Virus record (IMG/VR): IMGVR_UViG_3300033141_003979
Location: 45,771-109,770 of that record
DNA: 64,000 nt
Reading direction: 5' to 3' (one strand)
Origin: a virus
Shown: positions 1-7,549 of the stretch, piece by piece
Position numbering within the stretch: position 1 is the stretch's first letter
How the letters are laid out: every line of letters starts with the position of its first letter
Program-made: the position numbers and the translations under genes
Notes under the pieces: model-generated
The model's input: the letters and a program-made list of their open reading frames with translations, nothing else
Told to the model about the DNA's origin: nothing
The model's database searches: none

Positions 1-1651
1 CCATATTTTCCCCTGCATTCAATTCAAGCCGTTCAGCATCACCAGCATTCGCTATTACCCCAGTCCCTGTCCAATGCCAAGCAAATGTACGTACATTTGT
101 CTCAGTCACAGCTGTAACATGTCCCCAACAAGTATCCCCAGGTATTGCAGGTGAAGGAGATGGGGATATTGAAGGGCTAACTGAAGGCGATAAAGATGGA
201 CTCAATGACGGTGATATACTAGGTGAAATGCTCGGGCTGATTGAGGCTGAAGGACTATATGATGCAGAGATACTTAGTGAAATGCTCAAGCTTATTGATG
301 GGCTTATACTCGCACTTGGACTGATTGAAGGACTTAGGCTTGCACTCAGACTCGGCGATAAAGATGGTGAAATTGAAGCTGAAGGAGTAGATGGAGAATA
401 TGATGGGCTTATACTTGCCGATGGACTATATGATGCCGATGGAGACGAAGAAATCGAAGCCGAAATCGAAGCCGAAGGGGTATCTGGTGATGGACTTGGT
501 GATGGTGAAATCGATGGACTAATTGATGGTGAAATTGACAAACTAATTGATGGTGAAATGCTTGCAGATGGGCTTAATGATGGACTGATTGATGCCGACA
601 ATGACGGGCTTTCTTCCACAAACTCACTTGCCCCTACATCCCATCTAGCATCCGTACCAGCAGGCCTGGCATTTCCTTCTATACTAAAAGCATAAAGTGG
701 ATCAGGGGTAGTAAAGAAATTCATAGGGTTCCATGTGCCAGAAACATCATTAACTGGCGACATGCCGCAATTGCCCTCACCTAAATTATCGACACCATCC
801 CTAGTAGATAGACTGGCCGTAGCTAAGTAATCAGCATCTAGTGAGGCGTCCAAATCCAAACTGTTATCCCATGCAGTAGGAATTCCTCCAGCATCTAAGT
901 CCGCTGTATCATCGTCAGCAGCGTTCCAATCCGAAGGTACATCAATATCAACAGCAGGAAATACATCTCCCCCTATGTCCATTCCATAGCAACTAAAAAT
1001 AATACCTGTGCCATCTGTTAGAGAAGAATAAAATCCTGCACCACAATCTGCCCCAGTACAACAAATACAGCCCATTGTATATCCTGCGGCCGGAGAGAAT
1101 CTAAAAGCAAGATCCTCATGCCCATAGGAGATACAAGCATAGGCCATACTGTCTTCACCAAACATCCGAAACCCCTGCGGATTTCCACCAGAAGAAACTC
1201 CATCATAGGCAATACAATGTATAAAAAACACGAAGTCTGCGTCTTCACATCTGAAAATATGAGCACCTGTCGAACCAGTATAACTAGCACTTATTTTAAC
1301 AATTCTACTATAGAAATCCTTAACTTCAAAAACAAAAACATTTGCTCCTGTATAAACAAACGTAGCTCCAGTTGCTACAGTACCAGCAAAAGGAGTAGCA
1401 CAACTTGGTGAGGATTGAATCTTTCTATAGTGTGTTGCATCTACAATAGCATCTTGGAGTGCGACAGAATCATCATGTACTTGGCTATCATAGCAGTCGA
1501 GCACAAGAATACCAAGACCGGTGATATCTACATCTGTATCAGCTTCCCAAGTGCCTAAAACACTATAATCTGGATCTCCAGCGCCAGGCAACGAACCGTT
1601 GCCTCCAGAATCATAGGTTCAAAGATATGGTGCTTGATCCCAACAAGCCAT
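1..1651 (-). CDS. Putative virion/adhesin-like protein with long Ser-X repeat; in-frame TGA at codon 11; 3' end runs off the window (missing from ORF track)
   Basis: ATG at 1651 overlaps the upstream stop (TAATG). Manual translation gives MACWDQAPYL*TYDSGGNGSLPGAGDPDYSVLGTWEADTD, then the frame stays open to base 1, including WDVGASEFV followed by the S-x repeat. Confidence 0.8.
152..611 (-). repeat. Low-complexity coding repeat (S-x)n, x = P/I/A/L/Y, about 150 aa
   Basis: Minus-strand translation SPSLSASISPSLSPSASISPSISLSISPS...SPSVSPSISPSPSP. Confidence 0.9.
1564..1621 (-). promoter_or_regulatory. Candidate SECIS/readthrough RNA element downstream of in-frame UGA
   Basis: Perfect hairpin AGGCAACG-GTT-CGTTGCCT (1604-1586) starts 14 nt after the UGA; a lower stem CTATGA(T)TCTGG / CCAGATTATAG can also form. 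Confidence 0.55.
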
Positions 1652-2349
1652 TAGCTAATAAGCCCCTTTTTTGGTTCTAACATATTCAGCCCATCAAAAG
1701 CGCTAACAATGCGACCCTTAAGTTTATCCCAGAAATCAGTCTTACCAAGAGATCTGGACACCGCAGGAGTATAAACATCGTGCCTGTCAAACATCCTTAC
1801 GGTGTTGACCCCTAGTGTGTCTAAATCAGCAAGGGGCACACAGAACCTACGTTTTTTAATAATATCCGTTGGATTCGCACCAATATCCCACGATCCCGTT
1901 ATATCGTAGTAAGGCTCGCATAAGGCTTCTATCTTTGGACGATCTAAGTCGGTCACGGGGACAATTAAAAAATGCCTTCTTTCTAGATTGGTCCACCCAT
2001 GACCCTCTGCTTTATGAGCAATAATATCTCCGGGTCGTGGCCTTTTGTCGGTCTTCATATCTTCGTGAACAGAATATAGGTTAGGGTCAAATCCTGTTGG
2101 ATAATCAATACTTTTGCTAACAAGTTTATTTATAAGGACAGAACCAGCTTTAGCAATATCTGGCGTTAATTTGTTATAGGGGCCGTTCGCATAGCCTTTG
2201 CCATCAGCGCATGGAAAGTTCTTGTCGTAATAATATGGCTCGCCATTCCAGCCATGAGCGACAACAGGGAAATGATCTGTCAGGCTTTTCTCCTTCATAA
2301 GATAACGATTTTTATAGTAAGCAAATAAAGCTAATTCAAAGTTAGCCAT
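1651..2349 (-). CDS. Hypothetical protein (late module)
   Basis: 232-aa ORF with SD (GAGGA) upstream, co-oriented with neighbours. Confidence 0.8.
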   Translation of the reverse strand: MANFELALFAYYKNRYLMKEKSLTDHFPVVAHGWNGEPYYYDKNFPCADGKGYANGPYNKLTPDIAKAGSVLINKLVSKSIDYPTGFDPNLYSVHEDMKTDKRPRPGDIIAHKAEGHGWTNLERRHFLIVPVTDLDRPKIEALCEPYYDITGSWDIGANPTDIIKKRRFCVPLADLDTLGVNTVRMFDRHDVYTPAVSRSLGKTDFWDKLKGRIVSAFDGLNMLEPKKGLIS

Positions 2350-2368: not shown

Positions 2369-5300
2369 TTAAGGAGTCAAAATCATAACAACTGTATCTT
2401 CATAATCTGCCCCTAACAAAGCCGTCAAATTCTGAATATAAAACATGTCCTTGTAATCATAGTCTTCAAATTTCCAAGGAAGATAATTTACCATATCTTC
2501 AAACAATTCATCTTGAATGTAAATTTTGGCTTGAAACATATCGGCAGCTAAAGCAGGCGAACTACTATCTATTTCATTAGATCCAACAATTACAGCATGA
2601 CTAAAATCACCCATGTACCACCAAGGATTATACTTTTCGACTGAGGCCATAAAGTCACTGACGATATCAGACGCATTACTCTGTATAGTAGCCCCTAGTT
2701 CTGGGATTATTGGGTCAAACCCATGTAGCCTGAATGGGGCTTTGGCTACCCACGAAGAATAGGACTGTGTACTATCGATATCGTGTACTTGCCTAAAATC
2801 ATTAGTTGCTGTCAGATTACCCTCAGCAGGCATCGGAGAAAGCCCTTGACTATATCCCCAATCTTCCCAATCTGTATAGTTATCGTCTGTACCAGGATGC
2901 GCTGCTCTTGCAAAATTAACCCAACCAGTAGCCGCATCATTACAAGTTGTAAACCAAGCAGTAATCATATCATCATAGTAGCCCTGAACCTCTGCTTCCG
3001 TGGCCGCATCTCCCCGATAATTTGCCATTTCTATCATCGCATACATAGCAGCAACTTGCTTGACGGGGTGGAAATTACCAGACGTCCAAGTAACCCACTC
3101 AAAGAAGCCACTATCAGCTTCCCAGGTATGGTTTGCGTCATTGTCAAATAAAGCGTACATAGTATCGACTACAAAATCCCAGACATCTCCACCCCCTAAT
3201 GCCTCATCCAGCTTGGCCCAGTCATCGCTTCTTTGGCAGTATTTATAAAGCCCATAAATTCTATCAGCTATATCATTCCTATTTGACCAACGCCAGCGGC
3301 GATAAGGAGATGTATTGTTACAAGTAGTTTCAAGGGAATGAGTATCATAATCAAGACAACCCCAGACATAGGCATATAAGTTACTGTCTAAAATATAGGT
3401 ATCAACCAAATTACTCAAATATAATATTGTATTTGCCTTCAGGGGCTCTTCAAGATATGGGAGTGCATCTGAAAGTGTCCTTAAAACTTCTCCATCTTTC
3501 CAAAATACTTCCTCGGGTGCAGTTGAACTTTGAGCCCAAAACATTTGCGTAGCCGGATCTAAGTGTGCATCATCATCGACTATATCCTGTACCACTGCGT
3601 TAAGAAGTGTTTTCACATTATTTCTTGACAAACCTAAGTCTGGCGGTGCCACAAACAAATCTAGAGGATCATAGGTATTGCTTGCTTCTGGTGATTCATG
3701 AGTCAAGCAGAACAGATGCCCCCAGCTTACCCAAAAAACTTCATTTCCGGCAACCACTACAGGGCTAACAGAATCATTTGCTCCCCCGATACCGCCAGTT
3801 GTCGAACATCCGAAGCGAGTAAAGAATTTATGCATTCCATCTGGATAAATAGTGGTTGGTGTACTGTCTATCAAAAGAGGTTTTCTGTGAGTACCGAATC
3901 CATCCCCATAAACAGTTGTGTTAAGTGCCGGTGTCTCAATATCATAGTATCCTATATCTTCACTTAGAGTCTGATAAAACCTATCATTTACCAGCGTGTA
4001 ACGACCTATCTCATCTGGCCTCATTACAAACGTAGGACTATCATCTTCATCAGCAATTTGAATGCAACTTCCATCATCTAAATCTACCTTAACAAGCCTG
4101 TCATCATGATCTAGTGGATCTGTGTAAGCCCCACCATAGGGCACAAAATAGGCATATCCATCATTACTGATTACTGGCGTGTAAAGCCCCCAGTAACCAA
4201 GATAAAGCGGAGTATAGGCTGATCCGCTCCACAAATCTGTTCCGTCTGTAGCGTTGAAATAAAATAACGGTCTACGCTCTCCATAAGCTGTATAATATGT
4301 ATTGTACTCAGAAAGGACAGTTGCAATAGCCTTATACCCGACAGGCTCAGTATCGTATAGAAGTGCGTTTGGTGCATTTTCCCCCACAAAGGAGTAATCA
4401 TTTCCTGGCTTGCGTGTGACAAATATAACTACTTTAGTGCCTCCGTCACCTTTACCATAAACAGCCATTGTGCGTTTTGTGAATACCCCCTTCATTGTAG
4501 CTGTCCATAACTCCGTACCATTTTCCCTCAAGGCATAAGCGGTATTTGCCCCTGACTGAAAAAATATCGCTGATTCTATTGGAGTCGTTTCTACTTCACC
4601 AATAGCAGCCGTACACGATATAGGGCTATCGGCTGGGTAAGTCCATAAAAGAACCCCAGTAGAAAAGTCATAAGCTTTAAAGTTGCCACCAATATTCCCT
4701 ACAAAGACCTTGTTGTTATGCACCGCAGGAGTAACCCAAAGGGAGTCCCCCGTGTCAGCACTCCATATAAGATTACCAGCATCACTCAGACAATAGAGAT
4801 AACCATCTGTCGAGGCAGCTAGAATACGCAGATTATTATCTTTGTCACGATCTACTGTTAATGCACTAGGGAGAGCCCCTCCACAGGGGTAAGACCAATC
4901 AGTTGTCCCGTCGGATGTATCTAAAGCGTAAACTTTACCATTCATCAAACCAATATAAACTACATCACCAACAACTACTGGTTCTGCTTCAATCTCTATT
5001 CTCTCACCCAAGAATCTGCGCCACCTAAGATTTAAGACTCCACTATCTAATTCAAGATCATAAGGGACAAAATAATGCCTATCCATCGAACCACCACGAG
5101 TGGGCCACTCTGGTAGATAGATTTTGTAGGCTACATCATCTGATGTAGCGGCGATGGGAATAGTTATTAGCGCATCTCCATTACTTTCAATAACGTCTGT
5201 GGAATTAATGAGGCCCGTATCTGTGTCCCACTCCTCTAATATAAAATCAGTATCCGCCATACCTGTCATGGTAAAAGTAAGGTTATTAGGATTTGTTGGG

Positions 5301-7549
5301 GTTATTCCAGCAGAACAATCAACAGCCCCTTCCTGTGCCCCTTCATGTAAACACCAACCATAATCATCATTCTGAGCATGTATATATGCTTTACCTTTTG
5401 TTACATTTTTCTGACCTATGCTATCTATCCCAGCCGGATCATCAGCATCAATGGCCACATATCCTCCATGATGAACATCCAAATCTTCTACAAAATTATA
5501 GAAGGCGGCAAGAATAGGCAAATACCCACCAGATACCTTATCTAAATGCTCTCTCCACCAATATGCCCCCATGTAAAATGGCTGATGATGAAGTCCACCA
5601 CCCCATACTAGATTATGCAACCACACCCCATCATTTGCATTTCCGTCGAGCCAATCCCCACGATCATCGCCCGTAGCTGCCGGGTCAATTCCGCTTTCAC
5701 TCATTATAAAAGGTTTGCTTATTTGATCATCTAATATATCTAATGACCACGAAATACTCCAATCGTATAAATCACTCCCACAAATGCTATTGATGGTACA
5801 TTTATCATCAGCCTCGTCGGTATATTCATGAATGTTAACAACATCTAAATTGATACTAGCGACATTATTATCATAATCAGTTTGACGCCAATAGGTTACT
5901 TCCCATACTGAAGTTCCAAGAAGATGTACGTTGGCTGCGGAGTCGATTGATTTCATATAAACGGCGAAGTCATCAGCAGCAGAATACCAATCAGCATCGT
6001 TTGGATGATGCTCATTGCAAAATTCCCAAAGAAATACAGCAGTAGAGTATCCCCAACGAGCAACACAATAACGCCACCACATTTGAATATGCCATTTTGA
6101 CTTAGTAGTTAAAGCTTGGTTATAGCCATCACCTGTATCCGTCCAACTTCCATCATCCTCATCAAGATGTCTAGGAACCCAATCGTTTTTCTCAAAGATA
6201 ACATACTGGAGTTTGACCCCTGCTGCTTCCGCTGCTTCCACCTGTTTATCAAAAAAGAAAGATGGCTTTTGTTCTATAACTCTATGCCTATCTGCGCTTT
6301 CGTAACGCATAATTTCTTGATCATATACTCCATCATCATCTGTATCAGCCTTAATGCTTAACTTAGCTATCCAAACTTCACCATAAGAACAGTTATCAAG
6401 GTAGAAACTCAAATAGTCCCCATACGTGGTGCCATCAGCAACTTGGTGATCAAATGTCACTACTGTTGAGTCCCAATCGGTAGTAGCAATCTCATGCCCA
6501 AAACCACCCAAAGTATTGTTGCCCCGGATAGATTCGTAAAAGAAAGCCCCTGTATAATCACATTTATCATCTCCGGCCGGGAATCCATGAGTCTTTAATG
6601 TAAATCCGTGATCTTCTCCTATATCTACAGGGCCAACTAGACCGACAATTTTATAAATAACTGTCATCTGGTAATCAGGAAAGGTATCTTCTGGACCACC
6701 ATAATCAACAAAATCATGGGAATATCTCGTGTTCTCCCAAGGGCCTGTCCATATACCACAAGCACCATCCGTGACAGTAATATACCAAGACAACTCCATA
6801 TCTGTATATGCTTCTTCAAAGTCCAAGGGCATTTCAAACCCTTCGTTGCCTGAACTTTTATCTACCCGGATATAGTCTGCCCACTGATTACAATAAGCTG
6901 CTTCCGGTCCCATCCACTGGCGGTGAATATTTGCCCCTTTACCATCAAAAGAAGTATAACCAGTTGAAGTTTCCATATCTGCCCCACCTATGGGCCAAAA
7001 AATATCTCCACTCCCACTATACTCAAAATATCGAGTATCGGTTGCAACCTGGATAAAACCCTTTTTAGTTGGTGCTCGTGCTTCAAATGAGCCTGTGGCA
7101 GCAGAGGATGTGCCCCCTACATCTTCAGCAACTATTGAGTATTGCCATGTACCGACCTTATCCGGTTTAAACCGAATTTTGAATGAATCGTCATCTAGTT
7201 TTTCTGTAAGATGATAATTTGATTGAGGGAAGGTCCCAGATACCTCCATGTCACGATAATAAAATCCAGGTACGTCATAAGCGACGGAATCAGGGCCAGT
7301 CATTGTGCAAGTAACAGTTACTCCTTCCTCTGGAGTCACATTTTCTGGCTGGCTACCATCTTCAACATAAACCTCATAAGGATTATCAAATGTTCCTGTG
7401 AGATCAAAAGTAAGCTCATACTTCTCATAACAGTTAACTGGATCTGAGTTCTCCGTTACGTTTGAGATAACAGGCACAGCTCCCCAAGCTAATGTTGGAA
7501 ACAACATTAGAAATGCAAATATAAATATCTTTTTCATCAGTTTTTTCAA
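2369..7549 (-). CDS. Large acidic exported-type protein: signal peptide + DUF5060-like domain + GH-A (GH5-like) TIM barrel + PQQ/BamB-type beta-propeller + helical C-terminal domain
   Basis: MKKIFIFAFLMLFPTLAWG signal (likely start ATG 7537); YEKYELTF..DNPY..PGFY..FKIRFKPDKVGTW; WEFCNEH and FIMSESG as candidate catalytic Glu motifs; repeated VYIG..GKVYALD..DG...W propeller blades. Confidence 0.7.
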   Translation of the reverse strand: MKKLMKKIFIFAFLMLFPTLAWGAVPVISNVTENSDPVNCYEKYELTFDLTGTFDNPYEVYVEDGSQPENVTPEEGVTVTCTMTGPDSVAYDVPGFYYRDMEVSGTFPQSNYHLTEKLDDDSFKIRFKPDKVGTWQYSIVAEDVGGTSSAATGSFEARAPTKKGFIQVATDTRYFEYSGSGDIFWPIGGADMETSTGYTSFDGKGANIHRQWMGPEAAYCNQWADYIRVDKSSGNEGFEMPLDFEEAYTDMELSWYITVTDGACGIWTGPWENTRYSHDFVDYGGPEDTFPDYQMTVIYKIVGLVGPVDIGEDHGFTLKTHGFPAGDDKCDYTGAFFYESIRGNNTLGGFGHEIATTDWDSTVVTFDHQVADGTTYGDYLSFYLDNCSYGEVWIAKLSIKADTDDDGVYDQEIMRYESADRHRVIEQKPSFFFDKQVEAAEAAGVKLQYVIFEKNDWVPRHLDEDDGSWTDTGDGYNQALTTKSKWHIQMWWRYCVARWGYSTAVFLWEFCNEHHPNDADWYSAADDFAVYMKSIDSAANVHLLGTSVWEVTYWRQTDYDNNVASINLDVVNIHEYTDEADDKCTINSICGSDLYDWSISWSLDILDDQISKPFIMSESGIDPAATGDDRGDWLDGNANDGVWLHNLVWGGGLHHQPFYMGAYWWREHLDKVSGGYLPILAAFYNFVEDLDVHHGGYVAIDADDPAGIDSIGQKNVTKGKAYIHAQNDDYGWCLHEGAQEGAVDCSAGITPTNPNNLTFTMTGMADTDFILEEWDTDTGLINSTDVIESNGDALITIPIAATSDDVAYKIYLPEWPTRGGSMDRHYFVPYDLELDSGVLNLRWRRFLGERIEIEAEPVVVGDVVYIGLMNGKVYALDTSDGTTDWSYPCGGALPSALTVDRDKDNNLRILAASTDGYLYCLSDAGNLIWSADTGDSLWVTPAVHNNKVFVGNIGGNFKAYDFSTGVLLWTYPADSPISCTAAIGEVETTPIESAIFFQSGANTAYALRENGTELWTATMKGVFTKRTMAVYGKGDGGTKVVIFVTRKPGNDYSFVGENAPNALLYDTEPVGYKAIATVLSEYNTYYTAYGERRPLFYFNATDGTDLWSGSAYTPLYLGYWGLYTPVISNDGYAYFVPYGGAYTDPLDHDDRLVKVDLDDGSCIQIADEDDSPTFVMRPDEIGRYTLVNDRFYQTLSEDIGYYDIETPALNTTVYGDGFGTHRKPLLIDSTPTTIYPDGMHKFFTRFGCSTTGGIGGANDSVSPVVVAGNEVFWVSWGHLFCLTHESPEASNTYDPLDLFVAPPDLGLSRNNVKTLLNAVVQDIVDDDAHLDPATQMFWAQSSTAPEEVFWKDGEVLRTLSDALPYLEEPLKANTILYLSNLVDTYILDSNLYAYVWGCLDYDTHSLETTCNNTSPYRRWRWSNRNDIADRIYGLYKYCQRSDDWAKLDEALGGGDVWDFVVDTMYALFDNDANHTWEADSGFFEWVTWTSGNFHPVKQVAAMYAMIEMANYRGDAATEAEVQGYYDDMITAWFTTCNDAATGWVNFARAAHPGTDDNYTDWEDWGYSQGLSPMPAEGNLTATNDFRQVHDIDSTQSYSSWVAKAPFRLHGFDPIIPELGATIQSNASDIVSDFMASVEKYNPWWYMGDFSHAVIVGSNEIDSSSPALAADMFQAKIYIQDELFEDMVNYLPWKFEDYDYKDMFYIQNLTALLGADYEDTVVMILTP

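Follow-up and report, generated by a model that had tools for sequence, protein, structure and literature searches.

Does the UGA that follows the first ten codons of a late gene in an uncultured 110-kb phage end translation, or is it read as an amino acid, and if so, as which one? Recoding of UGA with the help of a SECIS element located inside the open reading frame is textbook bacterial biology. The gene in question is encoded on the minus strand, in the block of genes for building the particle (the virion operon), at the left edge of the window, which is the whole stretch of 64,000 nucleotides that was analyzed here. It continues for 197 nt beyond that edge, to genome position 45574. The initial annotation had described an ATG coupled to the upstream stop codon, a leader MACWDQAPYL, a TGA directly after the leader, and more than 530 open codons downstream. 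ATG (1651-1649), leader and TGA (1621-1619) are located exactly as described, and we counted 604 open codons after the TGA. The ATG overlaps the TAA of an upstream gene for a protein of 232 amino acids, and the TAATG overlap is kept in most relatives, both those with Cys and those with TGA at codon 11 (Cys forms and TGA forms below). We conclude that the phage probably encodes a bacterial-type selenoprotein at this locus. The conclusion is based on comparative analysis, without experimental evidence for incorporation of selenium, and the identity of the inserted residue as Sec is inferred. The features of the locus are summarized in Table 1.

Table 1. Coordinates, in the window, of the candidate gene, its proposed recoding signals and the adjacent features.
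Feature	Position	Strand	Remarks
Candidate selenoprotein gene	1..1651	(-)	615 codons from the ATG; UGA is codon 11
TAATG overlap (stop of the upstream gene, ATG of the candidate gene)	1649..1653	(-)	Putative translational coupling
Leader codons 2-10, ACWDQAPYL, with Cys3	1622..1648	(-)	In-frame conservation in TGA forms
In-frame UGA, codon 11, proposed Sec codon	1619..1621	(-)	Aligns with a conserved Cys (TGT/TGC) of homologues
Conserved N-terminal domain, residues 12 to ~345, predicted right-handed parallel beta-helix	617..1618	(-)	
SECIS-like upper hairpin, 8-bp stem 1604-1597/1593-1586, GUU loop 1596-1594	1586..1604	(-)	
Outer (lower) stem 1616-1605/1573-1563	1563..1616	(-)	Window sequence only, -10.6 kcal/mol
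TTG (Leu21), start according to ORF callers	1589..1591	(-)	Inside the 3' arm of the hairpin; rejected as true start
Ser/Pro-rich low-complexity tract (S-P-S-x)n, ~155 residues, followed by a short C-terminal domain	149..613	(-)	
Upstream gene, 232 aa, no known family	1651..2349	(-)	Syntenic with the beta-helix gene

We compared 22 distinct homologous loci, located on viral or metagenome contigs; codon 11 is TGA in 10 of them (the window, L010, L014, L015, L016, L021, L032, L034, L035 and L036) and TGT or TGC in 11. Wherever the N-terminal motif exists, no other codon occupies the position. The majority of the 32 protein homologues start with MAC[YF]D..[PD]Y.C-TYDSGG, and one of them, P0016, was matched to the TGA form L010 by sequence and by the length of its contig (6003 bp); in some members of the family the Cys motif is naturally missing, and the protein begins immediately ahead of TYDSGG. 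The family includes 446 representatives at E of 1e-10 or lower. Roughly one in three of its best representatives start inside the conserved domain, and ~18 homologues have truncated N-termini. A pattern search of viral contigs that was specific for the TGA form added nothing to the four contigs known before. Viral contigs scanned with a single protein and deposited phage genomes searched with tblastn gave no match, and a scan of the collection of genome contigs did not find the family in any cellular genome or prophage.

The aligned codons show that both sides of the TGA are under coding constraint. In the TGA forms, variation in leader codons 2-10 is dominated by the third position (entropy 4.5, 5.8 and 8.9 at positions 1, 2 and 3); Cys3 and Asp5 are fixed, Pro8 is present in 9 of the 10 sequences, and residue 9 is always aromatic, as in the Cys forms. 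Downstream, the frames are open for at least 340 codons where the contig permits, with no other stop. Two criteria for a bacterial-type selenoprotein gene are fulfilled: an in-frame UGA that aligns with a Cys of homologues, and conserved coding sequence before and after the UGA. In the family tree, in which branches measure ~1 substitution per site, the TGA forms do not group together, and the tree requires approximately 4 changes of state between TGA and Cys (3-5 in bootstrap trees).

The hairpin downstream of the UGA fits the bacterial SECIS (bSECIS) model. The perfect 8-bp hairpin with a GUU loop reported in the initial annotation is present at the described location; it begins 14 nt after the UGA, and the spacing between UGA and loop is 22 nt. 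The lower stem proposed along with it does form in the window sequence, but is not conserved in relatives: the other TGA forms have only a weak one or none. Taken as a whole, the 62-nt element has a folding energy of -21.2 kcal/mol (z = -2.35), and 3 of 200 shuffled sequences fold equally well. The published bSECIS model comprises a loop of 3-9 nt on an upper stem of 4-16 bp, with G at loop position 1 or 2, located 16-37 nt from the UGA, and a minimum free energy (MFE) of -7.5 kcal/mol or lower (PMC13188914). All 10 TGA forms satisfy the model, compared to 4 of 12 non-TGA forms (Fisher p = 0.0015), and so do 15 of 220 random in-frame sites in genes of the window's phage. The loop is found 19-22 nt after the UGA in all 10 TGA forms, and the pattern that they have in common, a loop at this distance on an upper stem of at least 6 bp, occurred at none of the 220 random sites. 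The local hairpin has a mean energy of -12.2 kcal/mol in TGA forms versus -8.7 kcal/mol in those Cys forms in which the encoded peptide is identical (one-sided Mann-Whitney p = 0.018). Local-hairpin energy and the bSECIS criteria were used in place of whole-window MFE, which did not discriminate the natural sequences from synonymous recodings, since a coding sequence rich in Gly and Pro codons can adopt many folds.

Compensatory changes in the stem were found as well, and this criterion is met, in the GUU-triloop subclass only. In the six sequences of the subclass, some of which are closely related, 97.9% of the cells are paired, and 4 of the 8 pairs change on both sides, through synonymous changes. 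None of 500 shuffles reached the observed covariation score, and sliding of the partners abolishes the signal. The register differs among the ten hairpins, and a consensus in a single register holds only 5 pairs. Of the 8 stem pairs, 5 are already dictated by the GGxGSLP peptide, and the hairpin site also folds in two or three Cys forms (in particular L009), so that the hairpin is partly a by-product of coding. The element did not match any Rfam SECIS family at gathering or permissive thresholds (E up to 10, 221 nt). Bacterial SECIS elements are diverse, and the lack of an Rfam match is therefore weak evidence. The test suggested in the initial annotation, namely that codon 11 of homologues should be Cys/Sec or keep the TGA and be accompanied by a covarying hairpin, was positive. 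The candidate family also satisfies the rule used to define new selenoprotein families, which asks for at least two sequences with a conserved TGA, at least two Cys homologues and a bSECIS-like structure (PMC1088965).

Several explanations in which the UGA would not be decoded within the gene, or not by a dedicated signal, conflict with these data. One is that phage or host uses a code with TGA as a sense codon (table 4 or 25, or stop-codon recoding in late genes of the phage); recoded phages exist, and the nearest named relatives of the capsid protein include a bin from the candidate phyla radiation (WWE3). However, the genome uses the standard genetic code. In agreement with the initial annotation, which had noted that other genes end in TGA, this codon terminates 21 of the 60 long ORFs in the window (TAA 22, TAG 17), in some cases via ATGA overlaps between compactly spaced genes, and it serves as a stop in the other TGA-form contigs too. 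The candidate is the sole TGA-interrupted gene of the genome, no suppressor tRNA is present in the phage, and no genes for tRNAs, including tRNA-Sec, were found in the window's phage or in three related records. Genome-wide reassignment, for which many in-frame TGAs, absence of TGA as a stop and a suppressor tRNA would be expected, is contradicted by the stop-codon usage and by the single interrupted gene, and we give it practically no weight. A nonsense mutation in a pseudogene, or an assembly error, would require only a single third-position change in TGT or TGC, and read data to exclude an error directly are not available. Yet ten distinct sequences, from independent assemblies and several deep lineages, share the TGA at codon 11 without any other stop, and the frames downstream are open and conserved; the comparative data contradict this explanation, which is highly improbable. 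Slightly less remote is a true start after the TGA, at TTG 1591, which would make the ten codons a mini-ORF or a remnant. The GGAGG-N10-TTG sequence to which the initial annotation had pointed is present (TTG 1591-1589), the ORF callers choose a start after the TGA here and for several homologues that begin with MPGGG or LPGGG, and the family members without the Cys motif start nearby, just before TYDSGG. On the other hand, the TTG is buried in the 3' arm of a stable hairpin, the protein conservation of the leader follows exactly the pattern of the Cys forms, and among the TGA forms only the window and L034 have TTG as the Leu codon (CTC, CTA, TTA or CTT in the others). A start at this position would also drop the invariant T12-Y13-D14-S15 of TYDSGG. 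Given the unconserved start codon and the loss of these residues, we reject the restart, for which we see very little chance.

More difficult to dismiss is decoding of the UGA as a sense codon for a residue other than Sec, because the comparative evidence shows that the UGA is read through, but not which residue enters. Cys could be inserted via a route with a SelB-like factor or a tRNA(UCA), or Trp by near-cognate readthrough by tRNA-Trp, in which case the hairpin would be a stimulator and the site would set a low yield of full-length protein. Mukai et al. reportedly described, in 2016, natural SelB-dependent insertion of Cys at UGA, and phage Qbeta reads through UGA as Trp to produce its A1 protein. 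Like the A1 gene, and like genes of stop-codon-recoded phages, the candidate is a late gene that continues past a UGA. In contrast to these systems, its short product would be a peptide of only 10 residues, for which known readthrough systems with two products offer no parallel, homologues have strictly Cys at the position, and the site is unique in a standard-code genome without suppressor tRNA. The alternative codon is never one for Trp, Arg, Gly, Leu or Ser, all of them residues with codons that likewise differ from TGA by a single base. As codon 11 alternates with Cys only, the inserted residue has to be Cys-like, and readthrough as Trp is a misfit. The position of the hairpin and the G in its loop match the SelB-type model, and insertion of Cys by a Sec-like route is rare and would still require the same machinery. 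We consider decoding as a residue other than Sec unlikely.

For a selenoprotein gene of the bacterial type, we propose the following mechanism. Ribosomes that terminate on the upstream gene would initiate at ATG 1651 by coupling, and the UGA at codon 11 would be read as Sec by a host SelB-GTP-Sec-tRNA(Sec) complex, recruited by the in-ORF hairpin 14-33 nt downstream of the UGA. Which SECIS elements SelB recognizes varies from one bacterium to another. The phage would contribute the cis signals only, and no Sec-pathway gene is visible in it. In the absence of such a gene and of tRNA-Sec, synthesis of the full-length protein would require selenium and a host that is able to incorporate Sec. The reading of the UGA by host SelAB and tRNA-Sec, as suggested in the initial annotation, is supported by the alternation of TGA and Cys codons, the fit to the bSECIS model and the covariation, with Sec insertion itself being inferred. 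It is possible that the site acts as a readthrough switch, or that selenium gates production of the protein; there are no test data. A host with selABCD is likewise an inference, as the host has not been identified. The named relatives of the capsid protein are found on short MAG contigs of Desulfobacterales and WWE3, with prophages of Alphaproteobacteria being more distant, and the relatives of PseB are scattered taxonomically. The MAG bins among these hints (Desulfobacterales, WWE3, Smithella and Desulforudis) are weak and inconsistent, the cluster names contain one Smithella MAG only, and no host flank was seen on the 'provirus' contig G001.

The protein is predicted to be a right-handed beta-helix. 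The AF2 model (pLDDT 84.8, pTM 0.90) displays strand rungs, and at the top of the Foldseek list are exclusively enzymes with a beta-helix and depolymerases of phages, the highest probability being 1.0; the matches are weak (best E = 8e-4, TM 0.35-0.41). PF13229 (Beta_helix) is among the precomputed annotations of the homologues P0002 and P0026. The fold criterion is thereby met by AF2 and Foldseek, with weak E-values, and the criterion of a sequence profile or catalytic residues for the beta-helix family is not, as the window protein did not match any Pfam or PHROG family and no catalytic residues were identified. Synteny of the upstream gene with the beta-helix gene holds for almost all of the related loci, so that the two form a conserved module. 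The candidate gene is located in the virion operon, and we infer that its protein is part of the virion. Phage tailspikes and depolymerases (PDB 9k4a, 8iqe, 7chu; PF13229) resemble the candidate in predicted fold, in their location among virion genes, and in a conserved N-terminal domain followed by C-terminal parts that vary, as they do across the homologues analyzed here, but none of the known ones has a Cys-x7-Cys/Sec motif at the N-terminus.

Residue 11 is located 8 residues after Cys3, with which it co-occurs, and we infer that the two residues probably act as a pair, in a selenenylsulfide or a shared ligand site. We know of no functional precedent for Sec at residue 11 of a beta-helix protein that is not an oxidoreductase. 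We tentatively speculate, without much confidence, that the Sec11-Cys3 selenenylsulfide or ligand site is located on a virion-exposed beta-helix, that the particles contain selenium, and that production of infectious or fully equipped particles depends on a Sec-decoding host and on selenium, with the UGA and SECIS element providing both a chemical upgrade and a host and nutrient gate.

The candidate shares the main features of bacterial selenoprotein genes, of which E. coli fdhF is the prototype (bSECIS model as in PMC13188914): an in-frame UGA that aligns with Cys; a hairpin directly 3' of the UGA within the coding sequence; a small apical loop starting with G followed by U or G, 19-22 nt away (16-37 allowed); a folding energy below -7.5 kcal/mol; and Sec and Cys forms mixed in one family. 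In contrast to these genes, it is encoded by a phage without trans-acting machinery, its product is a virion-operon beta-helix and not a recognizable oxidoreductase, its Sec codon is only 11 codons from the start, and the register of the hairpin shifts between subclasses. The viral selenoproteins described in the literature that we searched are those of two poxviruses only, the glutathione peroxidase homologues of molluscum contagiosum and fowlpox viruses (PMC8310308). [quoted passage not shown] However, they are captured cellular glutathione peroxidase genes of eukaryotic viruses, with SECIS elements of the eukaryotic type, whereas the candidate belongs to a bacteriophage, has an element of the bacterial type, and lacks a cellular homologue in the genome collection that was searched. 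We found no description of a phage selenoprotein of this kind in the same literature, and neither phages nor viruses are mentioned anywhere in a review of the prokaryotic selenoproteome from 2026.

If the proposed reading is correct, phages exploit the Sec machinery of their hosts for a protein of the virion operon, and the selenoproteome would extend past cellular redox enzymes to a beta-helix family of about a thousand representative clusters. The gene callers would then be truncating the family's genes, a systematic annotation error. The Sec codon would be a marker, readable from sequence, that limits the candidate hosts to Sec-decoding bacteria, and the question would arise what role selenium has at the N-terminus of an extracellular phage protein.

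The reading frame proposed in the initial annotation is present in the complete phage genome, which comprises 109,770 bp with direct terminal repeats and has the window as its right-hand 64 kb. The ATG is coupled to the preceding 232-aa gene, as claimed, and the frame reads MACWDQAPYL, then TGA, then TYDSGGNGSLPG, without a later stop; 604 open codons follow the TGA in the full genome, 615 in total. Capsid, portal and head-tail adaptor genes lie upstream of this gene, and its synteny with the 232-aa gene holds in nearly all related loci. The annotation was also right that TGA is an ordinary stop elsewhere: 60 long ORFs in the window end with TAA (22), TGA (21) or TAG (17), and ATGA-type overlaps occur at several gene junctions. 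Neither a tRNA gene (tRNA-Sec included), nor a paralogue, nor a second credible TGA-interrupted gene was found in the whole phage genome. Because TGA stops are common and no tRNA or other interrupted gene is present, a genome-wide reading of TGA as sense was rejected.

Coordinates of the TGA-containing gene and of other features in this phage and in a related one (unprefixed positions are those of the window)
Feature	Position	Strand	Remarks
Start codon	1651-1649	-	ATG; TAATG overlap with TAA of the 232-aa gene
In-frame TGA (codon 11)	1621-1619	-	
GGxGSLPGG insert	1586-1618	-	stretch holding the insert, which comes directly after TYDS
Hairpin stem	1604-1597/1593-1586	-	8 bp; GUU loop; 22-nt spacer before loop
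TTG	1591		GGAGG at 10-nt spacing; inside 3' arm of hairpin
Ser/Pro-rich (S-P-S-x)n tract	149-613	-	~155 residues; C-terminal half of the protein; 3' of beta-helix domain
ORFs opposite the tract	3-695; 228-695	+	mirror artefacts of the (S-P-S-x)n repeat
1726-aa protein gene	2369-7549	-	between head-tail adaptor region and putative selenoprotein module
Hint/intein-domain ORF with terminase ORF	L082:7687-9574 (contig of TGA form L014)	+	just before, and overlapping, terminase RNaseH-like-domain ORF
Sugar-pathway genes	L083:1240-14271 (genome 1240-14271, left of window)	+	

No Pfam or PHROG family matches the window protein, and Pfam Beta_helix is present on two homologues. An AlphaFold2 model of residues 1-354 (22-sequence alignment, Cys in place of Sec) shows beta-strand rungs with pLDDT 84.8 and pTM 0.90 (about 65 pLDDT for the first 30 residues). 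Its best Foldseek matches, with weak scores, are all right-handed parallel beta-helix enzymes and phage depolymerases or tailspikes. A short domain after the Ser/Pro-rich tract ends the protein, and C-terminal parts are highly variable among homologues. The family comprises 998 representative clusters at E <= 1e-3 (102 at E <= 1e-30); no members were found in the cellular genome collection.

A search of 5.8 billion proteins returned 32 homologues with 33-47% identity. Most begin with MAC[YF]D..[PD]Y.C-TYDSGG, which aligns the window TGA with a conserved Cys. We read codon 11 directly in the DNA of relatives from viral and metagenome contigs. Among 22 distinct loci, window included, 10 have TGA (the window, L010, L014, L015, L016, L021, L032, L034, L035 and L036), 11 have TGT or TGC, and one lacks the N-terminal motif altogether, in line with the homologue pattern anticipated for a selenoprotein. 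No other codon occurs at this position in the 21 loci with the motif, an absence that is informative since Trp, Arg, Gly, Leu and Ser codons are each also one base from TGA. Every TGA form keeps the ten-codon leader in frame (x-[AS]-C-[YWF]-D-x-x-[PS]-[YF]-[LT]), varying mostly at third codon positions as in Cys forms, and start coupling to the upstream gene is retained. In a maximum-likelihood tree built on the N-terminal domain, about four changes between Sec and Cys are required (3-5 across bootstraps), and terminal branches measure about 1 substitution per site. No TGA-form frame meets another stop within 340 codons unless its contig ends first. These results rule out sequencing error, a recent nonsense mutation and pseudogenisation. 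As far as sequence comparison can tell, the UGA is retained and translated across long evolutionary distances.

Cys3 and Cys/Sec11 always co-occur, and homologues without the N-terminal motif lack both while retaining other conserved cysteines. This co-occurrence suggests that the two residues act as a pair; that they form a selenenylsulfide staple or share a ligand site is inferred, not shown. One homologue, P0002 (698 aa), carries two tandem beta-helix N-domains, neither with Cys-x7-Cys, which shows this N-terminal motif to be an optional addition.

The hairpin following the TGA is exactly as first described; the outer stem forms in the window as well, and comparison with relatives shows it to be specific to this genome. 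For the 62-nt element the folding energy is -21.2 kcal/mol (z = -2.35), and no Rfam model matches the hairpin. The consensus bacterial SECIS (bSECIS) has an apical loop of 3-9 nt with G in position 1 or 2, usually followed by G/U, an upper stem of 4-16 bp, a UGA-to-loop distance of 16-37 nt and MFE <= -7.5 kcal/mol (PMC13188914, a 2026 review). In a script applying these constraints all 10 TGA forms pass, with loops GUU, GGA, AGGUUC, AGGCUC and CGGGUU, spacings of 19-22 nt and stems of 6-8 bp, versus only 4 of 12 non-TGA forms (Fisher p = 0.0015). Among those four only L009, a Cys form, passes at the same site; it retains the hairpin, two pairs of which are G-U, as though its switch were recent. 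Random in-frame positions in the phage's own genes pass in 15 of 220 cases, and none of the 220 matches the tighter pattern common to the TGA forms.

Part of this hairpin comes free with coding, as the peptide GGxGSLP itself fixes 5 of the 8 stem pairs. Nevertheless, local hairpins average -12.2 kcal/mol in TGA forms versus -8.7 in Cys forms with the same peptide (p = 0.018, one-sided, phylogeny not corrected for). The predicted covariation is borne out in the GUU-triloop subclass: pairing holds in 97.9% of cells, both partners vary in 4 of the 8 pairs, none of 500 shuffles scores as high, and the signal is lost when partners are slid. Between L032 and L034 there are two double compensatory changes, all four synonymous. 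Subclasses defined by the variable residue (N/S, A or V) have slightly shifted registers, so a single consensus spans the stem base only. The GGxGSLPGG insert is found in every TGA form (counterparts in L009-L036), and no TGA form occurs among the family members whose sequence is of the shorter GGGKDY type. The proposed SECIS thus lies within a specific peptide insert, which it may have shaped.

The alternative start suggested earlier, the TTG, exists with its GGAGG, but this Leu codon is TTG only in the window and L034, being CTC, CTA, TTA or CTT in other TGA forms. Restart there would also drop the invariant T12-Y13-D14-S15, and was rejected. Gene callers still place the start at this Leu codon. 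Of the 51 best family representatives, about 18 have a called start that falls within the conserved domain (P0009, P0280, P0284, P0302, P0017, P0012, P0018, P0294, P0295 and others); several share the Leu start of the window ORF call, and three start MPGGGNPDYS. From its sequence and the length of its contig (6003 bp), P0016 seems to be the product of TGA form L010. That about a third are short-called fits the idea that TGA forms are systematically mis-annotated when genes are called for public databases.

Other genes were noted. With its signal-peptide-like N-terminus, DUF5060 and PQQ/BamB-like beta-propeller, the 1726-aa protein is an unusual one to find in a virion operon. The Hint/intein ORF suggests that the large terminase of the L014 contig contains an intein; no host flank is evident on this contig (G001), a provirus per IMG/VR. 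Left of the window, PseB (362 bits), a PseC-like aminotransferase, a cytidylyltransferase and a PseD-like flagellin-modification protein amount to a nonulosonic-acid (pseudaminic-type) sugar pathway, whose named relatives are only ~50% identical and taxonomically scattered.

We consider it probable that Sec is inserted at the UGA via host SelB. The host is unidentified, host-inference routes having given only weak, inconsistent hints, and its selABCD and Sec incorporation are unshown. Decoding of the UGA as another residue, or regulatory readthrough, remains possible and is judged unlikely; all remaining explanations together are given very little weight. By the field's computational standard for a new selenoprotein family, which calls for a conserved TGA in two or more distinct sequences, two or more Cys homologues and a structure resembling bSECIS (PMC1088965), this is a new putative family. 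The searchable literature, PMC13188914 included, contains no phage selenoproteins, and its viral ones are from two poxviruses only (PMC8310308). The mechanism would be the known bacterial one. Three points are new here: a bacteriophage carries the gene, the protein is not an oxidoreductase but a beta-helix encoded in the virion operon, and the putative Sec sits at codon 11.
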